DNA of 62,764 nucleotides, counting the filler. It is 23 parts of 23 records of this genome, joined end to end, with 100 filler letters (N's around TTAATTAATTAA, not from the genome) between each part and the next. Parts side by side here need not be neighbours in the genome. Positions count along the whole stretch, not along the records: positions 32,232 to 34,519 come from SRR36015645_223413; 22 more parts are not named here. One strand, given 5' to 3'. Positions 5,883-37,295 of the stretch are shown here, piece by piece (the first letter of the stretch is position 1; every line of letters starts with the position of its first letter). A model generated the notes under the pieces. It saw nothing but the letters and a program-made list of their open reading frames with translations, searched no databases and was not told the DNA's origin. The translations under genes were made by a program, and so were the position numbers.

Positions 5883-5982
5883 NNNNNNNNNNNNNNNNNN
5901 NNNNNNNNNNNNNNNNNNNNNNNNNNTTAATTAATTAANNNNNNNNNNNNNNNNNNNNNNNNNNNNNNNNNNNNNNNNNNNN
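5883..5982. other. Artificial contig-joining spacer, first of 22
   Basis: N44-TTAATTAATTAA-N44. Identical spacers start at 5883, 7990, 10426, 12608, 15008, 20351, 22614, 25069, 27241, 29752, 32132, 34520, 37108, 39778, 41932, 44289, 46399, 49160, 51900, 54933, 57520 and 59632. ORFs ending in XXX...LIN or XXX...N are artefacts of it. Confidence 0.99.
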
Positions 5983-7757: not shown

Positions 7758-8307
7758 CTAAAAGATAACGTATTATGTATTGTATGTCTAGATACAGTAT
7801 AAAACAAGCAAAAGCAATTAACACAGAAAAGAATATTTGTAGGAAGCACCGTCCTAAGCATAACAATGGATTCTACATGTAAAAACAATTTTATGTTTAT
7901 ATGGCCATGTTGTCATAGTATTACAATCCAGTACTAATGTAATACTGGGTACATGTTGGTGAAGGCGCTTTCTAAAATAGTGAGAACATNNNNNNNNNNN
8001 NNNNNNNNNNNNNNNNNNNNNNNNNNNNNNNNNTTAATTAATTAANNNNNNNNNNNNNNNNNNNNNNNNNNNNNNNNNNNNNNNNNNNNTAGATGGCGCT
8101 GGCAAACATAGAAACAGTTTTTGTATTGCTGCCATCAATCATGTAATTAAACAAGTTTATGAGAGTTAAACATTATCACCTACCGTTTGTTTTGGACTAT
8201 AAACATCTAGGGCAGCTCCGGTGACTTTTGGTTTGTGATTCTATAAGGGCAGTTGCCCTTACCGGGCGTTCAAAATATCCGGCTCTGATATCTGACAAAG
8301 AACTGTC

Positions 8308-10425
8308 ATGGCGGCCGCCATGGCCGTGTCAGATTGCATACGTGACAGTACAATAGGTTCAGATCTAGAACCTGGTGCGTCGCAGCATCCTGAGTGCACC
8401 ACACACGTATCCAGTAACTATATCGAACAGTCCGGTGACGGTTTTATGCATTTTCCTGGTCTCGCGTCCGGAAATGTAAAACAGGCTACAGGTGATCGCG
8501 ATTTGGATGACCTTGAAAATACACATGGTCTAATTACCAGCATAATACATTCCTCTCAGTCCAGTGGCAAAAACGTAGATTTTGCCGGAATTGAACAACA
8601 TGGTAACCAACAATACAGTCCGAGTGACATTTCGAACAAGTCACAGGTCGCTACGTGTACGAACAGCAGCAAAATCAACAAAAACAGTGAAAATAATATC
8701 CAGGGGACAACGCCCACAAGTGTTTATCATAACTTTGTACATTCTCCTGTCTCTAGTGAAAATTTGCATGCAGTTGGTGAAAGCGAACATGCTAATTACC
8801 TGCGCGGTGGTGACTATGCAGCAGTCGAAGAGCAGCGCCCCGAATATGCAAATTTGATAGACAAAACTGGGTCAGATGTACGCCCACGCAATAATGTAAA
8901 CAGTAAGGTGAATGTGAGCGGAGAGAAACGTGGGGGTGTGCGCCGTGCGTCCAATCGGGTTGGAGCGTTTGATGTGGGTCTAACAGGTCGTGACATGGTA
9001 AAATCCAAGCCCAGGGAAGCCGGTATAGGCAGTGAACAGTCACAGTATGAACGTTCCGGTGGTAGTAATAATGCGAACCCTGGTGACCCTGATGGTGCGA
9101 ACTGTATAGGTGTGGGAAGCAGTACTGACTGTGAACAGCATACTGGGGCTATACCCAAAAACGGAAAGAACTCTCGCAGTGAACTAAATGGGGAAAACGA
9201 GCCTATGAAAAAAACTAACGTTGAAGCTGCTAATTGTTTAACCAACATAGGCCCAAGTAATGTGCCTGTGACTGATAATAATTCGGGTGGCAAAAAATTG
9301 ATGTATGCAGATATAGCTAGGAAAAAGCAAAATGATCACTTTGCAAGTAAACAAAAAGCTGTGTTTGTTAGGCTCACGTCAGATGATCACAGACAGTTAG
9401 GTTTAATTTCTTGCTCAAATGCATTTATTTCTGTTGTAGGGGGTGATGCCATAACTCATGTGTCTAAAATCAATTCAAAACTAATGGTGTATGTTAAAAC
9501 TGAGCAACAGGCTGATATACTGTGCTCTAGAGGTGTAACATTTGGTGGGTATCTTAGGGAAGTAAGGCGCGTGCATTCTCCATATGGCTCTATTGTTCTG
9601 TCCAATGTCTACCCAGAAATACCGAACGAAGCTATAGAGGACTTCTTCTTGACTACTTTTGGCACAGAAATTCGACAAATAAGGCAAATTCCAGCAGGAT
9701 TTAAGGATCCAAAACTGCGCCACATAATGTCTTTTCGAAGAGAAATAAAATATTTCAAGCCTAAGGAAGATGTATTCTTTCCAGCAGAAATAACACTACA
9801 ACACGATAATGAAAATTATAGACTTTATATGTCGGAACCAGGTAAACCCATCTGTTTTCGATGCTTTCAATTTGGACATATCCAAGCAGTCTGTCCCCAG
9901 CGAAGGCATCTACAAACCGACAGAAGGTATGGAGCAAACGAAATAGAACGTCAAGAAAAGAAAACACCAGAGCCCCAGGAACAAACTACAGAAAGTGAGT
10001 ACCGGGGACATGATAGGCAAACTGAAGGGTTAGAAAGTAATGGTAATCAAAAGCAGACACATGGTAAAACAACATCTTCGGATAACAGGCCTCAAGATTC
10101 AGACAATAGAAAAACACAGGAAGGAGATAGGCCTACAGATGTAGTGGACATTGACGAATGTGGTGGAGCTGACACCACAGAAGACACTAGATTTGTAGAG
10201 CAAAGAAATAAACGGAATAAGCGGAAAAAGAACAGCTCTCATCTGAGTGACTCCGGAGATGCTGGTCTCGAATTAAATAACATGTACGACGTGCTTGCGA
10301 ACAGAAACGGTCAAAATATGGAAACTGATGCTGCAACAAAGAGGCATAATACGAACCCAGCAACAAAAAAGGCAAAGGGGGAAAATAGTCATAACAGGGA
10401 AATGAACAACAATGAGGAGAAGACG
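8308..10425 (+). CDS. ORF1 of a second Tx1-like LINE family, truncated
   Basis: Clear homology to ORF1 at 293: IPAGFKDPKLRHIMSFRREIKY vs ISCGFKDPKLSHIMSFRREVKF, and MSEPGKPICFRCFQFGHIQAVC vs VSEPGNPLCFFCNNFGHIQAHC. Confidence 0.88.
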
Positions 10426-10527
10426 NNNNNNNNNNNNNNNNNNNNNNNNNNNNNNNNNNNNNNNNNNNNTTAATTAATTAANNNNNNNNNNNNNNNNNNN
10501 NNNNNNNNNNNNNNNNNNNNNNNNNGC

Positions 10528-12177
10528 ACATTACAGTCAGCCATGCCTGCCACTGATGAGCTTGTTGCCGACTTCAACTCAGCGCTTGCTGCAGGAGAAG
10601 AGAAGTTGACCAACTTTTTGCGAGAACGAGTGTTTAGTAAGAATACGTCCCTCTATGCATCCGTCCCATTGAGCAAACGCCTGACATTTGCCAAGGCACC
10701 AAACAAGAAGACTCCTGGAGAGGACCTCAAGGCAAGAGCTGCTGAATTAGAAAGGACGGCTCTTAAAGCTGTCATAGACTTGGTTGAGGTCAGTGAACTC
10801 GTGGACCTACCTCAGTTGCTGGAGCATCGTGTTGTGGAGGAAAATGTGACCTTATTCAACTCCAATGGCACCTACAGGAAGACACAGAAGAGCCAGCTCA
10901 TCCAGAAGCTGTCTCTGCAACCTGTAGATCTACAGGAATCCTACATTGCCATCATTGACATGGGAATGATCTGGAGGATGGCAATTCCATCAGCAGAAGA
11001 TAGACAAACGCAAGATGGTACCCCATACAAGTGGTCAGACTATGTCAACAAGCTGTCATCCATTATCCTTGGCCGCCATGGCAATGCTGAGAGAATCATC
11101 TGTGTGAATGACCCTTATGATGCTGCTTACTCAACTAAAGACGACGAGAGGGAACTGCGGGTACATGGTAATAAACATGTCCCAAACATCTACATGAAAT
11201 TAGGTGACCCATTTCCCTCTGCCAGAGAATTCAGCACACTGCTTTGTAGCGCCAGCAACAAGAGGCGGCTGCAAACCCTGATATGCAGCTACCTGACTGA
11301 CCTTGCACCAAGTGTCGATGCAGAGATCATCTACTCTGTTGGCTCGAGCTGTACCAACTTGTCAACTCAGCAATCAATGCAGAACTACAGCTTTGACCAG
11401 TCTGAGGCTGACACTGTCATGTTCTCTGCTTATGCAGTTCTGCGAGAGTCTGGTTACACTGGCCCTGTTGTCATCGATGCCGCTGATACGGACGCCTATG
11501 TCGCTGCAGCATTCGTCTCACAACAGCTACCTGGTATGCTTTGTATCAAGAGAAAGCAGGAAACAATCGTCTGCAGTGACCTGATGACTGATGAGATGGC
11601 AAGCTGCATTGTGCAGCTGCACTGCATGACAGGATGTGATGCCAACTCCAGCTTTTATGGCAAGGGCAAGAAGTCGGTGTATGACCAGGTGACGAAGAGC
11701 CCTGTGGGACAACAACAGCTCTCACAGTGCGGAGATAGCCTTGACCTTGAGGAGGAGGTGGTACAGGATCTTTTCGAGTTCACACGACATGTCATCTACG
11801 GCGACCACAAAAGTAAGACCATGGCTGAGGCCCGTGCCACAAAGTGGAAGAGCATGAAGAAAAAGTCATTCCTACGTCTCCCTCCAGATGCAGATAGCCT
11901 ACGCCAACACTGTCTACGTGCAAACTACTTGGCATATCTAGTGCGGCATCCATCCTTGAAGCACCACCCCTCACCAATCGGTCATGGCTGGGAACTGGTG
12001 GATGGTCGCTGTCGGCCTGTCCGTCACACACAACCAGCTCTTCCAACGCATCTACCCAGCCCAGCTGAAGCAACTGAGGAAGATGAGAGCGACGAAGACA
12101 ATGATGTACAAGGGAGGGAGGGGAACTCATCAGAAGAAGATGATTCAGAATACACACAATGCTCTGATTCGGACTGA
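10528..12177 (+). CDS. C-terminal half of an AcademX-like transposase (XPG/PIN-like nuclease domain)
   Basis: Open from contig start. Motifs IIDMG, VNDPY, SEADT, ADTDAYV, HCMTGCDANSSFYGKGK, LPP...H..RA.Y...GW, then an acidic tail. Homologous to the C-terminal half of ORF 15109-19053. Confidence 0.75.
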   Translation, partial: TLQSAMPATDELVADFNSALAAGEEKLTNFLRERVFSKNTSLYASVPLSKRLTFAKAPNKKTPGEDLKARAAELERTALKAVIDLVEVSELVDLPQLLEHRVVEENVTLFNSNGTYRKTQKSQLIQKLSLQPVDLQESYIAIIDMGMIWRMAIPSAEDRQTQDGTPYKWSDYVNKLSSIILGRHGNAERIICVNDPYDAAYSTKDDERELRVHGNKHVPNIYMKLGDPFPSAREFSTLLCSASNKRRLQTLICSYLTDLAPSVDAEIIYSVGSSCTNLSTQQSMQNYSFDQSEADTVMFSAYAVLRESGYTGPVVIDAADTDAYVAAAFVSQQLPGMLCIKRKQETIVCSDLMTDEMASCIVQLHCMTGCDANSSFYGKGKKSVYDQVTKSPVGQQQLSQCGDSLDLEEEVVQDLFEFTRHVIYGDHKSKTMAEARATKWKSMKKKSFLRLPPDADSLRQHCLRANYLAYLVRHPSLKHHPSPIGHGWELVDGRCRPVRHTQPALPTHLPSPAEATEEDESDEDNDVQGREGNSSEEDDSEYTQCSDSD

Positions 12178-13258
12178 TCACAATAATAATAATCACAATA
12201 ATGTGGACTTTTAATGTAGTTTTGTTATGATGTCATTTAATTGGTAAAAGTACAATTTTCAGCGTACAATAATTTCTTTTTTTTACCTGTTTTAAGCGTT
12301 TCATTTGATAACTATGCAAGTTACAACTATTAAAAAAGCTTTTTGAAAGAATTCCTTATTATTTACATAATAAATATGTGAGTGACATACCCAAACCCCA
12401 TAGGTTCACATTTTTGTTCAAAAATTACGTTTTCGCTCCACCGAAATGTGGAGAATGTTGGATTATTGCGTCAAAATGATGTCAAAACACCAAACTGATG
12501 TCAGAATTGGACTCCTCATGGTTGATTTACCTAGAAAAGTGTATTTACACATGAATATAGGTGCTCTGGTTCAAAAGTTAATTTTTCAAGATGGCGGCGG
12601 CGGCCATNNNNNNNNNNNNNNNNNNNNNNNNNNNNNNNNNNNNNNNNNNNNTTAATTAATTAANNNNNNNNNNNNNNNNNNNNNNNNNNNNNNNNNNNNN
12701 NNNNNNNTACTCTTAAAAAGTACTACATGTATATATACTCTGTGTGTGAAAATATGGCGTGAGCAGACACTTGTATTTCATGTCATGTACTAAAAATTAC
12801 CACGCAACTCGACTAGTTGCCAAAAAATGAATGTATATTACATTTATTGCATTGGCATCACCTGATTTGACTTCAATTTACAAACGCATTCTATTTGACA
12901 ATAATATAAAACTGGTTACAATGGGATAAATATTTACATTTTACATATTAACTGGCAATGGCAGACATGCAAACTGGAACGTGTGCCCAACATGCAGAAA
13001 CACGTAATGGTACCAGACATTACATGTACACCTGTACGTACACAGCTCCCAGTATATGTGTAGCAAAAGTATAAACATTTAATATAGGATATCAAATTGT
13101 GTTTTAAATATTCTTACAGCTCCAAAAATCATAAGCAGAACATTGTGAACACTGTGAACATATAGGCTATCCCAACATGTTGCAGGCAAAACATAACTTA
13201 TCATAATGGTAAAATGTATGTGAATTTTTTGAAACTGGGTTTCGTTACATTTACATAC

Positions 13259-14885
13259 CTGGCAGCCATTAGCTTGTCTTCTACTGTCATGGCCATTTCC
13301 ATTTCTCCGCTTTGGAGTTCCTTCCAATTTGGCCGCGTGGTATAGGCCTCCACTGTCAGCTCCTTTACTTCAGCAGGCCTCCGCTTATTGAAAAGGATCG
13401 ATCGGCACATGGAATATTTTGCTAGTTCCAGCCAAACAGACGCTGTCGGTTCCCTCCTCAGAAGCATCATTAGCTCATTGATCCTGTTAACAATGAAATT
13501 CCTCAGTTTGACCAAATCTTCGGTCACTGGTATTGTCTTCACCTTCTGCCTCTTCATTTTGTTGATCTTCATTGTGCCAACAGCGTTGACACGGTATCTC
13601 CACTCTGCCTCCATTAGCTTTTGTTCACCTCGAACTTCCTTGTACTTTTTGTCATCATCGCAACGAATGGCAAGACCTAATTTTGCCATTAAAACATGGC
13701 CTATCATGTGGCCCAAGTTTTTGCCGAGGTTTAAAGGAGAATCTTCCCCCTTGTAGGCCATCTCTTTTGTGACGGACACCATCAGATCGAAGTTTGCTGG
13801 TTCCACCAGCTCATCTAACGTTAAAAATGGCTTCCTTATTCTGGCTTCTTTAAGCAGTCGTGCTAATGTCCTGGCTCCTTGGCTCACCCTATGCATATCA
13901 TTGACTTTTTGATCTTCCGGATCTCCTAGTGCCTCCACTCGCAGAGCAGAATAACGCTTTATTAGTCGGTCGTTTATGACGATCTGCTTGATTTCATCAT
14001 CACGCATCCTATCTAGCATCTGTGCCACTATTTCTTCCGCTTTTTCAAGCAACGCACTGTGAATTAGTGCCTTGCTTCTCCTTATAGCATTGGATATTCT
14101 GACATCTTCTGAATCTCCATCATCTTCGTCTTCCATGTTTTCAGACGACAAATTGTATGAACGATGTACAACGCAGTTTTTTATGTGATGCCACAAAAAC
14201 GTTTTGATCAAAAATTTCAGACAATGTTCGCAAGGCAGATAGTCCTGGAGTTCATGTCCGGGGCCTTCGCAACCATAACCAGTACGTCGAGCAACAACGA
14301 GATCTCCCTTGCGTGACTTCAAGACTTTTATGTTGTGCTTGAAGTTGCCTTCGTTGGCCAGCAACTCCAAGGCAACTTTTCTTTCAGTTGACTGTGGTTC
14401 CATCATCCTTATGTGTGCCGTACATGCCTTGTACTTGCAGTTATTCAACAAATGTCTTGAGATTTTTTGCTGCCCTGTACCACAGTATGTACAGTAATTT
14501 GTTTTGTCATATGAGTTTTTGCAATCTTGTTTTGTTTTTGATTTGGGAACAACGCCAAAAAATCCCTCCTGGGCAACCATCAGTTTCGCTGCAATATTGG
14601 CTTCATGTAGTGGACGTCGATAATGGATAGTAGGCCTATCTGTATTTGACTGTTCATTACCCTCTGTTGCCGTCGGTGCAGTGAGGATATCATGGTCGGT
14701 GGAGTGAACATCTGTATTTGACGTTTCTTTATCCTTTGTTTCCATCGGTGCAGTGAGGCCTGTATGAACCTCTTGGTCTGCGTGCTCAAAAGAATGGGAA
14801 TTCTCTGATGCAGACTCATCCGATGTCACATTTTCGCTTGGCATGTACGAATGGTCATCACTATCTTCATCTTCATGAAATGATT
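13259..14885 (-). CDS. Exon of a Crypton-like tyrosine-recombinase transposon protein
   Basis: Zn motifs CTYC...RHL and CEHC...WHH...C, GNFKHN, and ILFNKRRPAEV (first catalytic Arg box). Acceptor ttattttag at 14886-14887 and donor AG|GTATGT at 13258. The H-x-x-R and Tyr part would lie in a later exon not identified here. Confidence 0.62.
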
Positions 14886-15108
14886 CTAAAATAAATACAT
14901 TATCCCTGTTTGGATTACAATTTTCTAATGCATATAATACGTGTATTATAAATAAGTATATGTGCATCTTATCCGAAGCATTCAGCTGCAATTATCCACA
15001 GAGGATTNNNNNNNNNNNNNNNNNNNNNNNNNNNNNNNNNNNNNNNNNNNNTTAATTAATTAANNNNNNNNNNNNNNNNNNNNNNNNNNNNNNNNNNNNN
15101 NNNNNNNT

Positions 15109-18100
15109 GTCATAATAGACAACAGACCTGAGCTTCTTACTTCTGTATATGAACGTTATCTTGATATTTGTTCGTCATCCGCAGAAACACCCAGGGGAAG
15201 TGCATTCAGCCTCTCTAGGACATTGATGAGTCACTTCAAAGGGCGCCTAAAGATACAGTGTCCTCTCGGGAAAAAGCTTGGAAATATCATATATAGTGCT
15301 GAAACCGAAGATAATGCAATTCGTGATGTATATGATTACATATCTACTGATGAGAGAACCATTGCCAAAGCAGCATTGCTTTTGCGCAACCAGTTGCTTA
15401 AGGTTGAAAAGGTCGACCTTCCTGAATGTCCGACATTGGAGGATTTGAGAAACGGGGACTCGTCACCCCCAAAACTTGTAGTAGATTTTTTCAATATTTT
15501 GTACGGGGGGCTAAAATCAGAGCTATATACAGAGTCAGTAAAGCGCCGTGCATATTCATCTAGTCAGGATGCCTTGTTCATTGTACAACGGGGGCGCGCA
15601 AAACCTGCAAAACATGTAGCTCTTGGTATGGGTGTTAAGTCGGTTACTGGCAGTAAAAAATTGGTTCAAGTTCTGAACAGGTTTGGTCATTGCTTAAACT
15701 ACAACACATTGGAAGAAGTTGAAACTGCCACAGCTGAATCCATTCAGCAACAGAAGCTTGCTTGTCCAAAAGGCACAGTCGTAGGTAAACCAGTTGGATT
15801 AGCCTTCGACAATTTCGATGAGATGACTCAAACTCTGTCTGGAGCCAATTCGCTGCACGATACCATGGGTATTCTGTACCAAAATGTGCCAGCACCTGAT
15901 GAAGAACGTGAAGCATCTGCTGTCGTGGCAGTTTCAACCTCATCCAGTGGTCAGCAAGTAAAGACAGGAAAAAGGAAGAGAACCCTTGAGAGCACAGATA
16001 CTGCACTCCAACCATATAGGAAGATACCAAAAATGACGAAGTTCGGTTACCAAAACACTGCAGTCTACAGCCTTCCAGATGTTAGCAACAAGGCTCGCCA
16101 CCGTGACCTCCTGTGGATGATGAGCCATGCCGTTGGCAATGATGTATCGCCTATGTGGGTTGGATTTAATGCAAGCACTTGCAGTGACCACCTTCCAAAA
16201 CAAGAGGTTCGGTATATGCCAAACCTACGCCAGCCTATCACCAGCCTAGAGGTCGTGCAGGAGACTCTCCTCATTACGCAGAGGTGTGCTAATGAGACGG
16301 GACAGAAATACGGAATAGTCAGTTATGACCTTGGCGCAGCCAAGCCAGCACTACGAATACAGGCGACTGAGAAACCTAAATTTGATGACATTTTTATAAT
16401 GTTAGGCCCGTTTCACATCGAAATGGCTTTCTTCAAGGCTATTGGAAAACTCCTGTCCAACTCTGGAGGACCAGAAATGCTGACTGAATCTGAGGTACTT
16501 GCATCCGGATCCTTAAATGGATTTTTGACGGGTAAGCATTTCAACAGGTGCAAGAGACTGCACCCCATACTAGCCCTTGCTCTTGAGATGCTACACTTCT
16601 CATCCTTCTTAGACTCTTACCCGGACAGAGAAGAAACAGAAGAATTGATAAGCAGCTTTCAACTAACCATAGGAGAGCAGCTTCAGTCTGCTCTAGACTC
16701 CGATGTCTTCAAAGCATGCACAGCCGCATATGAAGCATATACCCAAGTGACAAGATCTGGGGGCCATGGTGCAACCGCCCAGTTTTGGAGAATGTATATT
16801 GATTATATTCATGAATACCACGAGCTCGAACGGGCCATTCGAACAAATGATATCGATCTCTACACATACTCACTGACCGGACTCATTGGACTGTTCTTTG
16901 CCACAAACCACGTAAATTACAGTCGGTGGCTGACAAAGTTCCAACTAGATTTGATGAACATGGAAGATAGCCATCCTGGCCTACGTCAAATACTTGAAGC
17001 AGGCGTCTTTACTGTCCGACGAACAGAACATCCATTCAGCAGATGCCCGGTCGACTTGACTCTAGAACAGACGATTAACGCGGATGCAGCTTCAAGACTA
17101 ACTGGAATCACTTCTTCCACGAATAATTATGCGGCCCGACTTCGCTGGATGCTTACTAAATCCACTAGAGCTTCATTTGTCAGTCTACTCCACGAAATGG
17201 CTGGGCTGCTAGCAAAAGAAGACACAACTGCTGAACTGAGACCTGCACGAATAAAACGTGACGACAGAGATGTGAAAACCGTGGTACAACAAATTCAGGA
17301 TAGTTGCAATCCGTTTGGGAACGAAACTGATGCAGATACCAAGTTGTACAACATCCATACAGGAAGGGCAACTAGTGAAACCATCAGCAAAAGTTTACTG
17401 AATGTGCCAGCAAGTGGAAGGACATTGCACCAGGCATTCATCACAGCATGCGAGGCCGATGACAGTAAATTTGAACAACCCATAAGAAAAGCACCTCTCA
17501 AGACATTCGTAGACGAATGTGCCAGAAATAGACGAACGCCGGATAAGAAAGTTGCAGTTCTGAAGTGTACCCGGGATTTGATGGGCCGCCTAGTAATCCT
17601 TGCATCAAAGCGTGATATTGACCTGCAGCATATCTTCCAATATCCCCTTACACCAGTACCACTCACGATGTGCAATCCTGATGAGAGCATGGTCAAGACA
17701 GATAAAAGTAAGTTGCTGCACTTACTGGAGAGCAAGGAGATCAAAGGAGACGCACCTCAACAAATCAGTGCATACGTAGTAGATGGACAATATCTTCTGC
17801 ACACCCTACCTCCAAACATACCACCCACTTATGGAGGTCTAGCGAGGAGCATACTCTACCAAGTTTTGTCTTTGTCCAAAGTCCGGGTACACATAGCCTT
17901 TGATGATTACCCTCAACGGTCACTGAAGGATGCAGAAAGAGTCAGACGGGGAACAACAGCCGAGGACAGCAGATCCTACATTATTAGTGGTCCAGCACAA
18001 AGAAGGCCCAACGATATCAGCAAAGCGCTAACGTCAAGATCATTCAAACGGGAACTTCCTGATTTTCTTGCAAGAGAATGGCAGGATCAAGCATATGCTC

Positions 18101-19053
18101 GTATACTTGGAACCTGCGATGTATTCCTAGACGTTCCGTCAGGCCAGTGCTTCCATTTCCACGTGAGCGAAGGAGAGGTCAAGCGTGAGACTGTTGACAT
18201 CCTCACTAACAACCATGAAGAGGCAGATACCAAGATCTGCATGCACGCAAAGGCAGCAGATACATCGACTGGAAATATCGTAATACGGGCTTCAGACACC
18301 GACATAGCAGTTATTCTGCTGTACCACTGTGAAAAATTCAGTGGCCACATCTGGATGGATGTCGGAACTACATCGAAGCATAATCGGAGGTTCATTGACC
18401 TAACAGCGATTTCCAAGTCACTGGGGCCACAGCTCTGCAGTTCCCTCCCTGCCTTCCATGCCTTTACCGGCTCGGATTACACCACAGCGTTTGTAAGAAA
18501 GGGCAAGGTAAGGCCCTTTAATCAGCTGGAAAATAATCCCCATGCACAGCAAGCTTTCAAAGCTTTGTCAACAGATGGACAGCAAAGCGAGAAATGCATA
18601 GAAACACTCTTCAAATTCACTGCTATAATGTATGGAGCCAAAGAGAAGTCTAACGTAACGTTAAATGGCCACAGGTTCAAGACATTTGAAAGAATTTACA
18701 AGCCCAAGTTAAGAGGAAAGAACCCACTCGAAAAGCTGAAGGGAGCTGATGCCAGTGGTATTCCTCCATGTGAACGAGAGGTTGCTGCCCACATAAAGAG
18801 AGTTTCTTTTGTTTCAAGAATGTGGGCGAATGCTGACCAGCCAATCATCCAGCAACACCCTTCAGAGGATGAAGGATGGGAACTAGTGGGTGATCAATAT
18901 AGACCCATCTGGTTTGAGGGAGACCAACTTCCGAAGTCGCTCGTTCCAGATGAAGAAGACTTAGCTGATGCTGACGATGACGAGGTCTTAGAGCAGTCAT
19001 CATCTGATGAAGAGGACCTTGAAGGAGACGTTGATGATGGTGTTGATGTGTAG
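15109..19053 (+). CDS. AcademX-like transposase (putative DDE core plus XPG/PIN-like nuclease), 5'-truncated
   Basis: About 1300 open codons. Putative DDE motifs AFDNFD, SYDLG, LGPFHIEM, DLTLEQTIN; nuclease motifs VVDGQ, AFDDY, HEEADT, SDTDIAV, HAFTGSDYT...KGK; acidic tail. Confidence 0.8.
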   Translation, partial: VIIDNRPELLTSVYERYLDICSSSAETPRGSAFSLSRTLMSHFKGRLKIQCPLGKKLGNIIYSAETEDNAIRDVYDYISTDERTIAKAALLLRNQLLKVEKVDLPECPTLEDLRNGDSSPPKLVVDFFNILYGGLKSELYTESVKRRAYSSSQDALFIVQRGRAKPAKHVALGMGVKSVTGSKKLVQVLNRFGHCLNYNTLEEVETATAESIQQQKLACPKGTVVGKPVGLAFDNFDEMTQTLSGANSLHDTMGILYQNVPAPDEEREASAVVAVSTSSSGQQVKTGKRKRTLESTDTALQPYRKIPKMTKFGYQNTAVYSLPDVSNKARHRDLLWMMSHAVGNDVSPMWVGFNASTCSDHLPKQEVRYMPNLRQPITSLEVVQETLLITQRCANETGQKYGIVSYDLGAAKPALRIQATEKPKFDDIFIMLGPFHIEMAFFKAIGKLLSNSGGPEMLTESEVLASGSLNGFLTGKHFNRCKRLHPILALALEMLHFSSFLDSYPDREETEELISSFQLTIGEQLQSALDSDVFKACTAAYEAYTQVTRSGGHGATAQFWRMYIDYIHEYHELERAIRTNDIDLYTYSLTGLIGLFFATNHVNYSRWLTKFQLDLMNMEDSHPGLRQILEAGVFTVRRTEHPFSRCPVDLTLEQTINADAASRLTGITSSTNNYAARLRWMLTKSTRASFVSLLHEMAGLLAKEDTTAELRPARIKRDDRDVKTVVQQIQDSCNPFGNETDADTKLYNIHTGRATSETISKSLLNVPASGRTLHQAFITACEADDSKFEQPIRKAPLKTFVDECARNRRTPDKKVAVLKCTRDLMGRLVILASKRDIDLQHIFQYPLTPVPLTMCNPDESMVKTDKSKLLHLLESKEIKGDAPQQISAYVVDGQYLLHTLPPNIPPTYGGLARSILYQVLSLSKVRVHIAFDDYPQRSLKDAERVRRGTTAEDSRSYIISGPAQRRPNDISKALTSRSFKRELPDFLAREWQDQAYARILGTCDVFLDVPSGQCFHFHVSEGEVKRETVDILTNNHEEADTKICMHAKAADTSTGNIVIRASDTDIAVILLYHCEKFSGHIWMDVGTTSKHNRRFIDLTAISKSLGPQLCSSLPAFHAFTGSDYTTAFVRKGKVRPFNQLENNPHAQQAFKALSTDGQQSEKCIETLFKFTAIMYGAKEKSNVTLNGHRFKTFERIYKPKLRGKNPLEKLKGADASGIPPCEREVAAHIKRVSFVSRMWANADQPIIQQHPSEDEGWELVGDQYRPIWFEGDQLPKSLVPDEEDLADADDDEVLEQSSSDEEDLEGDVDDGVDV

Positions 19054-19144: not shown

Positions 19145-19399
19145 ATGTGTGACCTACCAAATCAAAACCCACATAAAGTCGGAACAAATCCAAGTGAAAC
19201 TCGGGCGCAGTGATGCTCTTTTGAGTGCTTCAACCATTGTGAATTTTCACCAAAAGGTGATGTAACTGCCAGCACGCAGTTCCATTGCCTTTTGGTGAAG
19301 TTTCATAACGGTTGAAGCACTAAAAGGGCATCACTGCACTCGAATTTCACTCCAATTTTTTCCGATTTTATGTGGGTTTTGATTTGGTAGATCACATAT
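19145..19399. repeat. Long imperfect palindrome 1 (~250 nt)
   Basis: Arms tgtgacctaccaaatcaaaacccacataaa... and ...tttatgtgggttttgatttggtagatcaca, about 85% complementary, 6-nt loop at 19270-19275. Confidence 0.95.
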
Positions 19400-19644: not shown

Positions 19645-19895
19645 GTACGCGACCTGGCAGGGCAAAATCGGGTTTATGACGGCCCATTTCCGTAAAGAAA
19701 TGGAGAGCAACGGAACTGTTGTGTTTGCTTCAGCCATTGTGAAACAGCACCAAACGGCAGTGGAACTACCGGCAGTTCCACTACCTTTTGGTGCTGTTTC
19801 ACAACAGTTAAAGCAACCAACAAGGTGCCTTTAACCTCACTTTTTGGGGGCTCTGGGCCGCCATTAACCCGATTTTGCCCTGACTGGTCACTTAC
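19645..19895. repeat. Long imperfect palindrome 2 (~250 nt), homologous to palindrome 1
   Basis: Arms gacctggcagggcaaaatcgggtt... and ...aacccgattttgccctgactggtc, centre at 19770/19771. Confidence 0.93.
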
Positions 19896-20450: not shown

Positions 20451-22479
20451 TGAGGCGGAGTGGAAGGATGTGTCCGCGGCGGAGATGGCGGAGACGCTGC
20501 GACAGTTACAAGAGCAAAAAGCAAAGGAAGAGATCGCGCGGCAAATTAAGGACATTAAAGATAGTAACAGGCCAGAGGACATTAACATTAATGTGTTACG
20601 TTCACTAAGGGATGAGGCGGCATACAGGCTAGATAAGGATCCAGTGCTGGGCGGTTCCAGGGAACGGTTATTCGGCAACGCTGATGCGGGTAGGCATGTT
20701 AACTTTTTTCCTGATGGAATATCCCGAGATGCTAGCAGGCATGCCAGATCGGGTATAGTTTTAAAAACTCATGACGTTATCAAGAACCAACAGTACTATC
20801 CCCAACAGTTTCTTGTCTATGAAGAAAAGTGCGTTGAATTTTTCGACCTCTCGATGCCCCAGTTTGTTTCCGGGTACATGAATATATTGCAAACGGCCGA
20901 TATTGGCACTGAAGAGCGTGAAGCTCGTATTGCTCACTTGTCCAAGCTTATGTTCTATGCTCAGTCCCATCCTTGGAATGTTATTCTGAACCTACACAAG
21001 TCTGTCGTGTATGCGGTGGAATCAGGTCGCAAGACCTGGGCGGATTCATTTGCGGACATTGAAAATGCTATCCTTCTCAGTACCATTAACAGAAATGGAA
21101 CAAGTGGCAGTCAGGTTAGGGTCAGTGGGGCATACCAGAAGAAATCTGATGATTCAAAACCATTTTGGTGCTTTAATTTTCAGAAAGGTAGTTGCATTGT
21201 CAATTCCAAGGTTCATTCACAGAGAATAGCTGGTGTACAGCGACAAGTGTCTCACATTTGTCGTACGTGCCTTCAAAACGATAATGAGAAAGCCTGGCAT
21301 CCTGAATCCTCAGATTCTTGTCCGTACAAAAAGAAAGGGGTCAGGTCTTCTAGTCGACTAGAGGATTCTGATGACAGGATTCTCAACTCTAAAAATTCAA
21401 GCAATAATTGTGTGAATAATGAATGTTGTGTAGAGACCAAACCACCGTTAAAGCAACACAATGATCACGGCATGCATGACAGACGTGTGTACATTAATGA
21501 TTTCGCAGAAAGTGTTCAAAATATTTATTGTTGCATGAAAATTTTTGTAGTATTGCAGGTCCTTGTGATTATAATTTGCACAAGCATGTTGTTGACAGAT
21601 AGGGTTGCATATTTCCCGGATAATACCGTTAATTATTCTGGTCTTAGGACCGACGGTACTAAGCTTAGTTGTAAGGGTATCTCAGATGCGCAGTTAGAAG
21701 TTGATAGGGGGCATGTTGCCCAATGCAATTCAGTAATGATGGGCGATTATAATCCGGATTATTTGTTTTTTCAAATGAGCACGCAATCGAATATGTGTAC
21801 AAGAGAAAACAGTAAGCGCCGGAGTTTTATTGTTACTGATGTAAGGTCGGTACCGGTTAATCTTTTTTATCCGGATATTGCCTTCCAACCGACTACCGTG
21901 CCTATTTTCACCGCAGACTCTTACATTGATATAGGGAATGCAGTTTTACGCTCGGGTAAGCCCAATTATCAGGGCTTGCGAATTCCTTTAGCTACTAGTT
22001 TAGACATTAGTCTTTGGAGATCTTTGTTAACTGACTTTGATTACCATGATTTTGAGATATGCGAATTTTTAGAATTCGGTTTTCCGATTGGTTACAATTA
22101 TAGATTTCTCCCTCAGAGTAGCGGTGTCCAAAACTACATTGGGGCTACGCAGTATTCTTCTGCTATCGACAGTTATATAAGCGAAGAATTGAATGAAAAG
22201 GCTATCATTGGGCCTTTTGATAGCAACCCTTTCATTATTGAGGCAGTGACTTCACCATTAAATACCGTTCCTAAGAGTGAATCGAAGCGTCGTATTATAT
22301 TAGATTTGAGCGCTCCTAGCGAGAATGGGTTATCAGTTAATGAGGGTATTCCCAGAGATACATACTTAGGACTTAAGTTTAAGCTTTGTTTACCTACCTT
22401 TTCTGAATTTTCAGATTTATTAGTTTTCAAAGGTAGGGGTAGTTACATTTGGAAAGTTGATTTAATAGAGTCGGCATAA
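20451..22479 (+). mobile_element. DIRS/Ngaro-like retrotransposon fragment: gag-like region and N-terminal RT in one frame, ending at a stop
   Basis: Gag-like region with CFNFQKGSC...H...HICRTC...H...C. RT-side motifs PNYQGLRIPL, FLEFGFP, GPF, SPLNTVPK, RRIILDLS, SVNEGI, WKVDL. The frame stops where DLxxAY is expected. Confidence 0.78.
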
Positions 22480-27341: not shown

Positions 27342-29751
27342 AGCATTTTTCTGCCTCGCACTTTAACTGGACATTCGCAAAAAGAGACCCCACCTATTCC
27401 CTTAAAAGAATCTAGCAAAGAAATCCCTTCTATCTCACGTAACAAATTGGCAACAGAAATAAATCCTGTCAGAAAAGAAAAAGAGAAATACTCCCCAAGT
27501 TCAGTTAAAGAATCAAGGGAGAAGGCTCCTACTGTGTCTACAAAACAGGCAGAACAAGAAATCAAGGCCAAGAGCAAGAGTCACAGGACAAAGAAACCTA
27601 AAGGGGTTAAGTTGTCGCATATTGATAACTTATTAGCGGATAGTGAGGATGATCGAGATATTTTAACGGATAGCGTAAGTCACATTGACAGTAGTTCAGT
27701 CATAACTAATGAAGAGAATGAGATCATCGGAAGAAAAATGGCCGAAAAACTGTCGGTGCCACCAACTAATAACACAAGCGCCGTTACCATGAAGGAAAGT
27801 GGCGGTACAGACACGACTGTTACCCAGACTAGCGAAAGTGACAACAGTTTACCCACAACACCGCACAAGTATACAAGTTTAGCAAATAACATTGTGTCGC
27901 CGAGTACGCGTGTGAAAATGCTTGCTGCTTTTATTCGTAATTGCAAGACTGAATCCAACAAAAGGAGTACAGATAGTCTTAAAAACGAGCTTCCAGCGAG
28001 TCTTTATGACGGTGTAGACAATGAGAATGCGTCAAATGTGGCCTCAAACGTTAATACTCTTGTTGACTCGAATAGTGTTTCCAAAATTGACAAAAACTCG
28101 GATTCACATAGCGATATGTTATCTACTTCCTCAGGAAAGGAATTGGAGTCCACATCCTCTGGATCTCACGATGCTCGAGATGTATCTGCTCAGACAGACG
28201 TTAACTTACAATCAGGCCAGCACGAGTTGACACAAAAATCCTCAATGCCAGACGCACTGCCCAATCCTGAAGCAACTAATGAGCTGTGGACGTCAGAACA
28301 AGAGACAGATACGTCAACTATTGTTACAAAAGGGGATTCAAGTGTGTCTGAAACAACGACGACACCGCTTGAAGATGTCACCAGCGATGCCGAACCAGAA
28401 TCAAACAGCACATTGTTTGAGCTTATCAAGGCCGAAATAGACAAGGATGAGCGGGATGTTGACATCGAACTTCCGAAGGCACAAGAAAAATTGGAAGTAC
28501 ACTCAGACTATGCAGAGGAGCATCGTAATATATTTGAGCAAACTGCAGGGCAGTTGACTAACATCGCACCTGCGGAATCTGAGAAATTCGAGTACATAGC
28601 TGTTTTGACTTCTTCAAATGACCAGAAAAGCAGCCCAGCACCGGAACATGAGACCACAAAACCCAGCCTTGGTCAAGTGTTCACTGATGAAGAAAAGCCT
28701 TTAGAAACTGATTGTTTGCCTTCTTTAGATCCTGCAAAAAGTGCATCAATGGAGTCTGCGAATTTACACAGTAATAAAGAAATTCCTTCCTACAAAGATC
28801 CTAAAGTTGTCACTCCCATTAGTAAAGAGAAGGGCAGTGAAGACTCTGTTGTTATGGAAATGACCAAGGCTGCATCTGTTGCCTTGGATACAGAGTCCGA
28901 CTCGGGTAACAACACCGATAAAGGCTTCAGCTCATCAGGACTAAAATCTCCATCGCTGAAGTTAACAGATTGTATGGGGCTAAGCAAAATTACTACACCA
29001 CCAAAGCGACGAGCCATTAAGCGGAAAAGAACTCAAAGTGTGCAGCGCAAAGTCAGTGAAAAAGATGTCGGAGATAGCAGCGAAGACACAGCGACGGAAA
29101 GCCAGGCATCTAGCAGGAGACGTAGCAGTCGTATCCAATCTTTGGAAGAACAAAATAAAATTAAACAAGAGGAGGAAGAAGCATGCAGGCGAGACGATGA
29201 ATGGAGAAAGGAGGAGGACAAAAAACCGACAGAAGATGTGCCAGAAAAGAAGACACAAACCGAAGAAACCGAGGAAAACAAGACAGACGAAAGCAAAACT
29301 GGAGAAAAGAAGAGGAAGCGAGGAAGACCGAAATTAGTAACCAAGCTTGAATCATCTGTGGAAGATACGAAAAAGGAAGAAGTCAAGCCGCAGGTGATTG
29401 CCGAGCCGCTTGTCCATTTTAAAACTGGTAAAAATGTAACGCAGGCTAAGGAAGCGTTCTTTGTACCACCCCCACCATCGGAAACAATGCCTACGGTTGC
29501 ATCAGCACCTGCAGTAGAAACAGCGCCACGGCCTACAGCACCTACAACGCCAGCGGTAGAAATTGCAAAGGTAGAAACAACTCCGCGACCTATGAAGGTC
29601 AAATCCCGATGGCGAGCCACTCTCGAAGAGCAAGGCATCAATGTAACAGCACAAAACCCGGACGTACAACCAAACATCACTCCAGAAATTAAGTTGGAGG
29701 TGGCGTTTGGTAGTCAAACAAAGTTGAAGGATAACCTGTGGGAAAATAGCG
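27342..29751 (+). CDS. Large low-complexity coding segment, probably SETD2/Set2 N-terminal region
   Basis: About 800 open codons rich in S/E/K/T. RRRSSRI, AT-hook-like KRKRGRPK and PMKVKSRWR, a motif I recall from invertebrate Set2 proteins. No SET domain in the contig. Confidence 0.5.
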
Positions 29752-32131: not shown

Positions 32132-32688
32132 NNNNNNNNNNNNNNNNNNNNNNNNNNNNNNNNNNNNNNNNNNNNTTAATTAATTAANNNNNNNNNNNNN
32201 NNNNNNNNNNNNNNNNNNNNNNNNNNNNNNNACCAAGTTATCTGCTTTACGGAGAGTGTGTATGTTAGTAGTAATTAAATAATCTATTACGCAATGCGCT
32301 AACAAAAAGTCAACAGTATTTACAAACGAAATAGTGTAATAATGGTACATAATATAAGAGGCTTATGAGGTTCTACTATGATTTTCGAGAAATATTTTAC
32401 GAATTGGTAAAAAACTGGAATAATTTTTGTAATTTAAGAATGGTGTGACACAAGTCGATTGATATATCAAATTCACGTGACATAATAAACCTTTTGTGAT
32501 CAGATAAGAGCAACCATAAGTTTGTTAGCTATATGAATAGAAAGTATAGAGAGTAGATAAAATGTACAGCTTAATTTCGTTACTTGTAATGACATTTAGA
32601 CAAACGGTATCTTAGTGATACATCGCAAACATAAAACCGTTTACTATTAAGTTGACCAACACTGCAGTAGCCTATGTTCGTAATAGAC

Positions 32689-32797
32689 CAGGAGCCCGCG
32701 ACGAAACAACTACCCCACAAGATACAGAAGGCTTGGGCGCCTCAAACACCCAAACCCTCTGCATCCCATGAGGCAACTACTTCGTCACGGGCTCCTG
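32689..32797 (-). ncRNA. Putative structured RNA: uninterrupted 51-bp hairpin with 14 G-U pairs
   Basis: 32689-32739 pairs with 32747-32797 without gaps: 37 Watson-Crick pairs and 14 mismatches, all G-U on the minus strand. Confidence 0.7.
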
Positions 32798-33405
32798 CTC
32801 CATAAGTGAGAGATGCATAAGTTTATTGCATTTACTGTGAATACTGATATACGCGTATAGTTAGCTATGGTATATAGACATCTTTCCTAACAAGTTTATC
32901 ACTTGGCGTCACCGTTTAGGCCTATACCTAAGCACATTATAATTCATATATATGTATATTAACCATGGTTCTGCAAATATGCTTCACAGTGATTTGTACC
33001 AACGCCTATTTAATTGAAAATATGCAGTGCTATATAGGCCAACTGAACACTCGCGTGTAGCTTATTATCATGAAATACACAGGGCATCCCCAAAAAATCC
33101 ACACCCACTGCACAGCACACGCTGTGCCGAGGGGGCAGACATTCCGGGACACCTGGTACAAAATGCAACTTCAGTAAACCATATATTCGTACATGTGTAC
33201 AAAACCAGAAAAATTGGATAATAAAGCAAGCAGTAGGCTGCGTTGGACAGCAGTTCTTTGTAGCAACCAGCATAACCAGCAAATAACACAAAATTAAAAT
33301 GTCATGAAGTAGTAATAAGTAAATATATGCTACGTGTATGTGGCACTATAAAAACAGGAACAATAGTCACTAAAATGGAGTGAAAAAAAATAAAGATGAA
33401 AAAAC

Positions 33406-33487
33406 TTTCACTATGCGGACTCGAACCCAGGTTTTAGTATACAGTAACATTGGAAGTCGGACGTCTTAACCATTGCGCCACAGTGAC
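33406..33487 (-). pseudogene. tRNA-derived Pol III-like unit (pseudo-tRNA or SINE head)
   Basis: A box TGGCGCAATGG and B box GGTTCGAGTCC; acceptor stem GTCACTG/TAGTGAA pairs 6/7; CTTCCAA loop (Gly-TCC-like); anticodon and T stems broken; T6 run just downstream. Confidence 0.68.
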
Positions 33488-34089
33488 AGTTGGCTATCGA
33501 TATTTCATGGGTATGAGTGACATTTTACTGCTGTATTACTTATTTCTATTTTTGTCAAACAGGCTTGCGGCTATGCGAGTACATGCAGGTATATTGTAGA
33601 TGTATGCAACTAGGCCACGCACACAAAGTTTCTCGGTTTATGTGAGTAATCCTGCGCCGTTAAGCTTGAGCATGGAAATGTGCGTGTTTATTGGCTATAG
33701 GCCCTACACTTCAATAATAATGCAATATGGTGGACATGTAGGCACCTTAGCAGATGTTACATGAGCTAACAACATGAAAGTTTGAAGTTGCATTAAATTG
33801 AAAATTACGCCTAGGCCTTCTGTACATAGAAGCCTACATGTAGAACAGGGCAACATGCCTAATAATAAAAAAGTAAACGCCAAAAAGTACTGCATGTAAT
33901 AATCTACACTATGTTGCATATTTAAAAATTGCCTGCAGTTTAATGGTGCGCACAGCTCGCAAGCAGCTAATAATTTCACACGCACGCAGAAAAAATATTA
34001 CATTGGTTGACTGACAAAAAAGACGAATAGTGACGTGCATTTTAGTTGTATAAAGATAGGCCTATGGAAATTTCTTTATATAGAGCACA

Positions 34090-34519
34090 TTACTTAAACT
34101 GCTCGATATCCTGCAGTCTTTTTATCTGTGTAATTTTGCCTTCATTGTTCTTAACAAGGATTCGACCGTCCGAAGTCCAAGTCCCCTGGATTTTTGTTGC
34201 CCTCAGCAGCTTTCGGCACTCAAAGAACAGGTTACTCCGGAACTGTGTTAAATCTTCCGATATGAAGACTTTCTTTGTGGCGTCATTCTTTTTCAGTGAA
34301 GACCGATTTTGGTACAACATCCGTCGTTTGTTGTACGTCACCAGCTTACATATGATGGCTCTAGGACGGGACACATCATTCGTCGGTTTTCCCACCCGGT
34401 GTGAGCGGCCTATGTCGGCGTCGGAAATATCGACTTTGATGGAACGGCACAAATCCAGCACCTTGGCGTCCGTACTCTCACCAGGGGTCTCCGGGATGCC
34501 CCATATGCGTACGGCGTTA
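34090..34519 (-). CDS. C-terminal part of an L1-ORF1p/Transposase_22-like protein (RRM plus CTD, also FP25K-like)
   Basis: NAVRIWGIPETPGEST...RSHRVGK...RPRAIICKL...VFISEDLT...WTSDGRILVK. Confidence 0.82.
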
Positions 34520-34814
34520 NNNNNNNNNNNNNNNNNNNNNNNNNNNNNNNNNNNNNNNNNNNNTTAATTAATTAANNNNNNNNNNNNNNNNNNNNNNNNN
34601 NNNNNNNNNNNNNNNNNNNGTATGCGCGACTTCCCGGTACCGAAATTGGGGTTGATGTAATGACCTTATGTGGTCATTTTTTAAGGTACAAAAAGAAAAC
34701 GTTACGGTCACATTACTTTATTGGTGTTTTACGAAGCGAAATTCCAATTCCAATTCAGTGGTTACCATTCATTAAATCTATTTTTCGCAAGCTTTCAGCC
34801 CATGAAGAAAACAC

Positions 34815-35278
34815 TATGTGGCATGAATACGTGCAGATTAACGCGACCATACATCCAAGATGGCCACCAGTTCCAGTAACCGATATGGGCAAGCGTGTCT
34901 CAAAAGCGGTTCATTTTCCAGTCTGCGGATGTAGTGCAAGGTTACCTATAGGACACCACGTGTTCTCTTTACGAATAGTCAGTTTCACTGTTTTTTGAGG
35001 TTATATGATGACGTCACAACCCCATTTTCAGCTTAAAGGCCGCCCTTAAGAATGACACATGCGAAAAACACGAACATCGCGGGCATGTTGACCCATACAA
35101 ATGTTTTTTGAAAACCGGCAATTCGTAAAGAGAATACGTGGTTTCCTATACCCTTGCAATACATCCCTAGACTGTAAAATGAGCCGTTTCTAAAATACGT
35201 GTGCCCATATCGGTTAATGGACAGCGCGGCCATCCTGGATTTATGGGCTCGTGAAAATGAAACTATGCATGCCACATA
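34815..35278. repeat. Inverted repeat with ~170-nt arms (MITE/foldback-like)
   Basis: 34815-34986 matches the reverse complement of 35110-35278 (shared tatgtggcatg, taaccgatatgggca, ttctctttacgaat), roughly three-quarters identical. Confidence 0.88.
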
Positions 35279-35801
35279 ACAATCGCAAACCCAAGTTAGT
35301 AGTATCTAAAAATGGATAAACCGTATGCAGAACCTCCCGGCACCGAAAGTATCTTCGCGACATGCAAAAAAAGCTGCGTAAAAATTGACAAGTTACACAA
35401 GCCCCTGAGATTTTGCCTGGTTTTCACGTTTTGCAATATTCCCTGACGTGCCAGGCTTTCAGAACAACAATCTGGCCGCCGATACGCTAATGTTCCTACA
35501 ACACTGTAATGGAAGCATGGCAATTTCTATTCGCCTAAAATGTACTAGCAAATAAGTATCTCCCGTAACGGAGAAACCTCCCGAACAACTGCCCAACACC
35601 CACGGCACATGCCTGCAATGACAGTTTTACGAAATGCGCACACAAAATGTTGGTTTTCGGCGATGCATGAAATTTATTTAGTACAGGGACGAACGGGGGA
35701 TATATATAACTATATGCATATATTCAGATAACCGCACTGACCGAGAGAGGCGCAGCCAAAGGACGCACGGCAAAAGAAACCGCTAAAGAACATCGGGAAC
35801 A

Positions 35802-36071
35802 ATGCCACAAACACAAACAATGGCTACTAACGAAACTCCACCGATTACGCCGGAACAAATAAGACGCCTAAAGCGCGGACTTAGAACCCGTATCATGAAA
35901 GTACTACACAACCAAACAACGAATACGAACGAAACTCCATCGATTACGCCGGAACAAATACGACGATTGCGGCTCGGAATTCGGGCCCGCATCATGAAAA
36001 TACGACAAACCCAACGAGAACACGACGCAAAACAGGCGATCGAATTTATCCTGAAACAACTGGACAAGTAG
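35802..36071 (+). CDS. Small basic hypothetical protein with an internal 33-aa duplication
   Basis: NETPxITPEQIRRLxxGxRxRIMK occurs twice (99-nt period) with several synonymous differences; TATATATAA at 35701-35709. Confidence 0.55.
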   Translation: MPQTQTMATNETPPITPEQIRRLKRGLRTRIMKVLHNQTTNTNETPSITPEQIRRLRLGIRARIMKIRQTQREHDAKQAIEFILKQLDK

Positions 36072-36287
36072 CCAGCCATAGATTTTTTTGCGACCGCAAC
36101 CACCCGCGAACATAGCGCACTTCCTTGCACTGAAATGACCAGTGCAAAAAACTAGCCGGACAGAATGGGGGAGCGGTAGCCCACAAGCACACATGACCCA
36201 AAATCCAAGAAGGCCACAAAAATGGCCACCACTACACTTGCGACCATATCAGGCTACGCAATCTGGTGCAGTGGGCAGCAGTGATTG

Positions 36288-36825
36288 CACGCTAGCCAGC
36301 ATTGAGTTTACGGCAGCTCGCTTGAACGTGTGCGAAATAGTGCACCGTACAAGGGACAATGTATTCTCAGTGTGCGCTAATCATTAATAGTCTCGTTACT
36401 TTCAGGCAATGCTTTTTTGTGTACAGTTGCCAGCGTGGTTTCCACGCTAGCCATAAGTGAGTTTATGACAGATAGCGTGAACTTGTGAGAGGTATTGCAT
36501 CGTACAAGGTACACTGTATTCGCGATGTGGCCTTAATGTCGATAATCTAAGTGTAGACAACCACGCACGAAGTTCACGCTAGCCATAAGTGAGTTTATGG
36601 CAGCTAGCTTCAACGTGTGCGATGTAGCACACCATGTGGTCGTATTAGTAATGTTCGCGATCTTTTCAGGCAACGCATATTTTTCACGGCGACCAGCGTG
36701 GATATCACGCTAGCCGTAAGTGAGTTTATGGCAGCAATCTTGAACGTGTGAGAAGTATCACATCGTACAAGGTGCAATGTGTTCTCGATGTGTTCTAATT
36801 ATTAATAATCTCATTGTAGACAGAC
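36288..36825 (+). repeat. Four-unit degenerate repeat array (131-155 nt period) with dimeric higher-order structure
   Basis: Core cacgctagcc...tgagttta.g.cag at 36288, 36443, 36575 and 36706. Confidence 0.88.
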
Positions 36826-37295
36826 ACAATGCCATTGGCAGACCGGCTGAAACAGTTTGTGGCGCGGGCGACAGCATTCTGCACCCTACTAGGAAGACCA
36901 CACACCGCACGTGCAACACAGCAGGCCCCAGAGGATTGGGAAAGTGAACCAAAAAGCCCGTTCTACGCCCCAACACCCGCAGAAATGCCACAAGAATGCT
37001 GCAAAGGGGTGGAGATTTCTCTGCGACAACATGACCACCTCGTAGCAGGGCACGTCCGAGAGGACGTTTTTAAGGATAAAAGCAAATTCTTGTCCTGTTG
37101 TGTGCTCNNNNNNNNNNNNNNNNNNNNNNNNNNNNNNNNNNNNNNNNNNNNTTAATTAATTAANNNNNNNNNNNNNNNNNNNNNNNNNNNNNNNNNNNNN
37201 NNNNNNNCTGGTCACAGCGTCAAAAAATCTGATTTTTTTAGGGGGGGGGGGTTATCCAGCACTGTAATTAGTTTTATCACACACTAATACTTACC

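Follow-up and report, generated by a model that had tools for sequence, protein, structure and literature searches.

A 109-nt palindromic hairpin at positions 32689-32797, on the minus strand of the 62,764-nt stretch of DNA analysed here as a whole (the window), pairs along its entire length with no mismatch other than G.U. This pattern probably arose when ADAR converted A to I at many sites (hyper-editing) of a formerly perfect palindrome in a 3' UTR and the edited bases entered an assembled transcript; it is read from a comparison of one arm with the other in one assembled sequence, not from DNA-RNA mismatches. The earlier note had offered two readings, namely a selected minus-strand RNA, or ADAR editing seen either in cDNA or in a retrocopy. 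Editing captured in cDNA is the part of this proposal that is favoured here, because the contigs are transcript-like, the G.U pairs lie on the sense strand of the contig's ORF, half of the adenosines appear to have changed, and the 5' neighbours and the base composition agree with it, whereas the selected RNA and the retrocopy seem less likely.

Pairing and folding of the hairpin

The hairpin consists of 54 pairs around the central base 32743. On the minus strand these are 38 Watson-Crick and 16 G.U pairs, with neither A.C nor transversion-type mismatches and with no gap, and the whole 109 nt form a complete palindrome in purine/pyrimidine terms, centred on 32743. The window contains 40 inverted repeats of at least 20 pairs that are perfect in these terms, of which the hairpin is the longest (54 pairs) and the runner-up reaches 40 pairs.

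The first description was of a gap-free 51-bp stem with 14 C/A positions, equivalent to G-U on the minus strand, and seven Gs on each arm, and all of these counts were reproduced pair by pair. The arms, at 32689-32739 and 32747-32797, form 51 pairs without a gap, 37 of them Watson-Crick and 14 G.U on the minus strand, and there are no mismatches besides these 14, which are C/A on the plus strand. The wobble Gs of the minus strand (C on the plus strand) are found at 32699, 32707, 32710, 32715, 32718, 32732 and 32738 in the left arm and at 32757, 32762, 32766, 32767, 32774, 32777 and 32780 in the right arm. The segment 32740-32746 on the same strand, described at first as a 7-nt loop, does separate the 51-nt arms, but the pattern runs on through it: this tip is palindromic if transitions are allowed, and it adds two further G.U pairs (minus-strand G, plus-strand C, at 32740 and 32741) and one A-U pair around 32743. 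The hairpin pattern is stronger than first described. Beyond it, one G x G mismatch (32688/32798) is followed by five pairs, four Watson-Crick and one G.U, in an outer extension of the minus-strand hairpin in which 32684-32688 on the left side pairs with 32798-32802 on the right.

With regard to orientation, the probability that all transitions point the same way is 1.2e-4 for 14 out of 14 and 3e-5 for 16 out of 16, both figures being computed before the lack of transversions is counted. The earlier note had also proposed folding both strands. The minus strand of 32689-32797 folds into an unbroken helix of -88.3 kcal/mol (z -14.86; none of 200 dinucleotide shuffles was as good), against -48.8 kcal/mol (z -8.75) for the plus strand, and its 53-54 pairs without interruption represent the long, near-perfect dsRNA expected of an ADAR substrate. 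The G.U pairs make up 27-30% of the hairpin pairs and are densest at helix positions 17-35, where they account for 10 of the 19 pairs, tandem G.U/U.G steps among them.

Transcript setting and other repeats of the window

Between the 23 contigs that make up the window (2007-5882 nt each) stand artificial linkers of 100 nt (44 N + TTAATTAATTAA + 44 N), such as the one at 5883-5982. The linkers at 32132-32231 and 34520-34619 bound the contig of the hairpin on its left and right, respectively. The "perfect palindromes" I3-I24 returned by the repeat finder are the linkers themselves and were rejected as biology.

The contigs are most likely animal transcripts derived from cDNA, given their unbroken multi-kilobase host ORFs and animal-type transposons, and the animal source in particular is suggested by the presence of Pao/BEL, P/THAP9 and L1-type elements. 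Pfam matches were obtained for 12 of the 19 long ORFs scanned. Three contigs carry unbroken host ORFs, which correspond to an aconitase (749 aa), a PAN2 N-terminal + UCH fragment (659 aa) and a VPS13 C-terminal fragment (688 aa), and the remaining Pfam-matched ORFs belong to Pao, gypsy-like, copia-like, P/THAP9, hAT and APE-RT elements. Seven long ORFs of 544-867 aa (248-2851, 5985-7888, 8308-10425, 10543-12177, 13201-14991, 20470-22479 and 27447-29750) matched no Pfam family at E up to 0.001. The contig at 1-5882, in which a first ORF of 867 aa with no Pfam match is followed by a second one with APE and RT, is apparently a full-length LINE transcript. No ADAR gene was found among the 23 contigs scanned, the window holds no poly(A) run of at least 12, and ARAGORN called no tRNA genes.

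The contig of the hairpin (32232-34519, 39% GC) has a single ORF, on the minus strand at 34090-34519, which is L1-ORF1-like or Baculo_FP-like and of which the C-terminal 142 codons and the stop are present, the frame being cut off by the end of the contig. Its Pfam match is to Baculo_FP domain 2 (PF25298, E 1.2e-6), and nine longer relatives (257-445 aa) were found for it, the best with E 3.4e-38 and 52% identity, while a PDB sequence search with the fragment gave no matches. In three of the five relatives scanned, the N-terminal part gave only sub-threshold Pfam matches (bZIP_2, TMF_TATA_bd, BRE1) and is read as a probable coiled-coil; the layout of a coiled-coil followed by Baculo_FP is one that we take to resemble L1 ORF1-type proteins. 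Neither an ORF2 nor an RT is found downstream of this frame in the contig. The presumed 3' UTR (32232-34089, minus strand) spans 1.86 kb, in which stop-to-stop frames do not exceed 111 aa. Downstream of the stop, after about 1.3 kb, comes the hairpin, on the strand on which the G.U pairs form, and it is presumed to lie in the 3' UTR of an ORF1-like transcript whose sense is the minus strand because the only ORF of the contig is on that strand. Its flanks within the contig, of 457 nt and 1722 nt, are unique.

Elsewhere in the same UTR, the minus strand at 33412-33491 displays tRNA-like A- and B-box motifs by eye and is perhaps a tRNA-derived SINE, with no tRNA or RNA family called there by ARAGORN or by Rfam (E up to 10). 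The region 33319-33481 is identical to a contig of 163 nt from a marine sediment metagenome run. A search of sequencing runs gave one match, to marine sediment metagenome contigs, with a share of 0.06, and none to an RNA run, and the three pieces of that metagenome cover only 33288-33481 and 34150-34229, outside the hairpin.

Copies and relatives of the hairpin were sought in several collections. An exact scan of the metagenome contigs with 31 nt of left flank and stem base gave no matches, and neither did a 37-letter purine/pyrimidine-degenerate motif of the left arm, which matches either ancestral state, in the metagenome, viral or prokaryote genome contigs. Within the window, the first 26 nt, with up to three mismatches allowed, matched the hairpin alone. 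The earlier note had suggested Rfam as a check for a known family, and this came back empty: the whole window gave no family at the gathering threshold, and at E up to 10 it gave only sub-threshold matches to mir-318 (the best, at 29 bits against a gathering threshold of 70), SNORA29, snoZ118 and mir-244. Elements of the PIF/Harbinger (Tourist) group produce a 3-bp TWA target-site duplication. A TAA flanks each end of the extended 119-nt palindrome (32684-32802), at 32681-32683 and 32803-32805, as a possible 3-bp duplication seen by eye, which is weak in AT-rich sequence and carries no statistical support, and the palindrome is possibly a miniature inverted-repeat element with a TAA duplication.

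The other inverted repeats of the window present a different picture. The earlier note held that the repeats near 19 kb show both orientations as well as transversions, as was confirmed by self-alignment of 19145-19399, which contains 16 G.U-plus, 12 G.U-minus and 12 transversion-type mismatches (each mismatch being counted twice). Both orientations and many transversions are found in 19145-19399, 19645-19895 and 34815-35278 alike. The first two are decayed inverted repeats of 84% and 75% identity, respectively, with mixed mismatches and no one-sided G.U excess, and they are located downstream of an ORF of 1276 aa with DUF6589 (15223-19053, plus strand). The third, with arms of 130 nt and 77% complementarity, lies in the contig 34620-37107, which also contains direct repeats of about 150 nt with 66-79% identity (36266-36822) and for which no ORF of at least 150 aa is listed. 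A one-sided transition excess, as a sign of transcriptome-wide editing, was not seen in other inverted repeats of the window, those in 3' UTRs included; this is a point against editing, although these repeats are decayed and imperfect. A further stem, 8966-8988 / 9363-9385, sits within the plus-strand ORF 8308-10473 and has 23 pairs around a 374-nt loop, 15 of them Watson-Crick and 8 G.U on the plus strand, with no A.C; it may be meaningless, as chance alone should, on a rough estimate, give the window several stems of such length that are perfect in purine/pyrimidine terms.

Direction of change and fit to ADAR

A G.U pair can originate from an A-U pair through an A-to-G change or from a G-C pair through a C-to-U change. 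On the minus strand, the hairpin contains 13.8% A, 36.7% G, 21.1% C and 28.4% T, compared with 28.7% A, 17.2% G, 19.0% C and 35.1% T in the rest of the UTR, so that A is scarce and G in excess in the hairpin, with C and T being ordinary. The A-to-G direction is favoured because only A and G are displaced, as this direction predicts. The ancestral palindrome would have had a GC content of 45% under A-to-G and of 71% under C-to-U.

Taken as A-to-G, the changes affect 14 of the 28 stem adenosines, or 16 of 31 when the tip is included. According to Bass 2024 (PMC11019741), deamination of perfect dsRNA above about 50 bp reaches 40-50% by the time the reaction is complete, and about 50% A-to-G is seen in the cDNAs of natural substrates that are fully paired; the fraction observed in the hairpin agrees with the plateau given in that account for perfect duplexes above 50 bp. 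Compared arm against arm, the hairpin also has the single-mismatch-type cluster expected of A-to-G editing on the transcribed strand, with 16 of the 16 G.U pairs on the sense strand of the ORF, where the choice of A-to-G rather than C-to-U comes from composition. Furthermore, Porath et al. 2017 (PMC5625713) report that a nearly palindromic repeat can be edited alone and that self-folding palindromic repeats are targets of hyper-editing.

The bases 5' of the changed adenosines (A6 U5 C2 G1) differ from those 5' of the unchanged stem adenosines (G5 C4 U3 A2), and a 5' A or U is found at 11 of 14 changed against 5 of 14 unchanged sites (Fisher p 0.054). The earlier count of a 5' G at one of the 14 wobble sites and at five of the 14 remaining stem adenosines was obtained again. 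With the tip included, a 5' A or U precedes 13 of 16 changed and 5 of 15 unchanged adenosines (p 0.011) and a 5' G precedes 1 of 16 and 6 of 15, respectively (p 0.037), all of these neighbour statistics resting on 28-31 sites. Across Metazoa, U and A are reported to be favoured and G disfavoured 5' of the edited adenosine (Zhang et al. 2023, PMC9989829; Porath et al. 2017, PMC5625713), and the hairpin shows this same preference in a small sample.

On the 3' side, the changed adenosines are followed by U5 C5 G3 A1 and the unchanged ones by A7 G3 U3 C1. A 3' A is depleted at changed sites (p 0.033), and the changed adenosine is the 3'-most one in six out of six A-runs. The reported 3' preferences are for G and against U in most species (PMC9989829), with an enrichment of A in invertebrates and amphibians (PMC5625713), and they are described as weaker and less conserved than the 5' preference (PMC9989829, PMC5625713). 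The hairpin follows neither of these patterns as published in the two studies, and this mismatch counts against editing. So do the two changed sites at the very tip (32740 and 32741), which adjoin a 3-nt loop, as there is hardly any helix on the 5' side of the target at that end of the hairpin; they would be easier to edit in an intermolecular duplex. In addition, a consensus G at 16 sites requires either a high level of editing or a contig assembled from a small number of molecules, and 50% editing within one molecule is described as rare for endogenous substrates, which are imperfect helices (Bass 2024, PMC11019741).

Hyper-editing seen in cDNA would proceed as follows. The contig 32232-34519 would be an assembled animal transcript with its sense on the minus strand of the window, and its 3' UTR would contain a short palindromic repeat that may be a miniature inverted-repeat element. 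The DNA palindrome would be perfect or nearly so, and the RNA would fold into an uninterrupted helix of some 54 bp, in which ADAR would deaminate about half of the adenosines on both arms. Inosine would then be read as G on copying to cDNA and assembly, so that each A-U pair struck would turn up as G.U when the sense strand is read and as C/A when the opposite strand is. Three premises of this account are inferred: an A in the DNA at each of the sites, an ADAR in the organism, and a contig that reflects edited molecules.

Alternative origins of the G.U pairs and comparison with known systems

The 16 Gs could instead be genomic, although this is unlikely. In that case it would represent a natural hairpin-RNA locus, with arms set apart by G.U-preserving changes alone, through selection or through reverse transcription of an ADAR-edited RNA; the RNA would stay a perfect 54-bp helix, the DNA would no longer be a cruciform-prone or silencing-prone palindrome, and the locus would be a natural counterpart of the engineered G:U hpRNA design. 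Selection for an unbroken minus-strand RNA helix, which might serve as a Dicer, Staufen or ADAR-binding substrate or as an hpRNA-type small-RNA precursor, would let only the pairing-keeping G.U changes survive and remove A.C and transversions, weakening the DNA palindrome as a side effect while the RNA helix is kept. It predicts the same sense-strand picture of 16 G.U pairs free of A.C and transversions, it accords with a minus-strand fold far better than that of the plus strand, and engineered G:U hpRNA transgenes with 18-26% G.U are reported to form hairpin RNA and to avoid inverted-repeat silencing (PMC9263138). Nevertheless, we regard it as quite unlikely, as the G.U share of the hairpin is high, the crowding of G.U pairs and tandem steps at positions 17-35 is odd for a helix kept for stability, and selection would not predict the bias in the 5' neighbours or a composition poor in A and rich in G; moreover, the hairpin belongs to no Rfam family (mir-318, at 29 bits against 70, being the closest), and scans of the window and of metagenome, viral and prokaryote collections brought up no conserved copy. 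The other route, in which an edited RNA was reverse-transcribed and inserted, leaving an edited retrocopy with the Gs fixed in its DNA, is supported equally by all the ADAR-type evidence, and the contig does have a retroelement-type ORF1-like gene in a window rich in reverse-transcriptase elements. Against it, contigs that look like cDNA need no DNA step to explain the Gs, and the absences of an ORF2 or RT after the ORF1-like frame in the contig and of a poly(A) run of at least 12 in the window weigh in the same direction, making an edited retrocopy very unlikely.

A change in the opposite sense, from C to U (T) on the minus strand, would require a cytosine deaminase, either AID/APOBEC-like or transcription-linked on the non-template strand, acting on one strand only of a GC-rich palindrome. 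Conversion of G-C to G.U yields the same picture, and a 5' purine precedes 10 of the 14 candidate cytosines against 9 of 23 unchanged ones (p 0.09). AID prefers a WRC context, and the contexts of vertebrate APOBEC3 are TC and CC. The 5' neighbours of the 14 candidates (G9 C4 A1 T0) do not follow the TC, CC or WRC context of AID/APOBEC-type enzymes, with TC at none of the 14 and CC at four, which departs from the APOBEC3 contexts, and CpG at only four. An ancestral palindrome of 71% GC would furthermore stand in a contig of 39% GC, C and T in the hairpin are already near the UTR values whereas A and G are not, and deaminases of single strands should spare a stem; altogether, the C-to-U origin appears highly improbable. 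The figure of about 4 of 14 given earlier as the most that CpG decay could cover was reproduced under the C-to-U reading, and CpG decay was rejected on this count, as was RIP-like mutation, with a CpA context at 3 of 14 sites and a transposable element content of animal type. Least probable of all, to the point of being barely credible, is neutral decay of a DNA palindrome or an artefact of assembly or cDNA snap-back. Inverted repeats are indeed common in the window, but decay has to contend with the orientation probabilities given above, lower still with zero transversions, and snap-back would give identical arms, not arms embedded between 457 and 1722 nt of unique flank; snap-back cDNA was rejected for the unique sequence on both sides.

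If hyper-editing by ADAR is the true origin, the hairpin would be an ordinary, if unusually clean, example of something documented throughout the animals, the hyper-editing of palindromic repeats in 3' UTRs. In assembled transcriptomes, edited bases can pass for encoded ones, which may mislead scans for "selected" RNA structures, and the comparison of palindrome arms can flag editing without a genome. Gs present in the DNA would matter more, as they would mean either that RNA editing has become fixed in a heritable form or that selection favours a helix specific to one strand and with only G.U mismatches.

Several known systems bear a likeness to the hairpin. The palindromic MITEs of the PIF/Harbinger (Tourist) type resemble it in its length of about 119 nt, consisting almost entirely of terminal inverted repeat with TAA on both sides, yet they occur in many copies, whereas here neither the window nor the metagenome, viral and prokaryote collections scanned yielded a second copy. 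Animal microRNA precursors, represented by mir-318 in Rfam, share a hairpin on the same strand, but the score is 29 bits against the 70 needed and the uninterrupted 54-bp stem is much longer than that of the 69-position model. The engineered G:U hpRNA transgenes of Zhong et al. 2022 (PMC9263138) are alike in having imperfect DNA arms and a fully paired RNA in which all mismatches are G.U (18-26% in the designs reported); these are synthetic constructs of 200-450 bp with all changes on one arm (C-to-T, sense), in contrast to the 7 + 7 distribution of this candidate natural case.

The two closest parallels concern ADAR itself. The "hypermutation" of fully paired dsRNA described in vitro and in viral cDNAs (PMC11019741) likewise involves a perfect helix of more than about 50 bp, with some 40-50% of the adenosines affected on both strands and read as A-to-G in cDNA, although the virus cases in that account are long intermolecular duplexes and the present one would be a cellular transcript with an intramolecular hairpin of about 54 bp. 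The hyper-edited inverted and palindromic repeats reported from non-coding parts of animal transcripts (PMC5625713, PMC9989829) differ in being identified from DNA-RNA mismatches rather than by arm-against-arm inference in one sequence, and the hairpin departs from those descriptions in its very high fraction of changed sites (about 50% of the adenosines in the consensus) and in its 3' neighbours. The resemblance to them extends nonetheless to the dense single mismatch type, A-to-G on the sense strand, to the long near-perfect dsRNA arising from a UTR repeat, to the avoidance of a 5' G and to a palindrome that can be edited on its own.
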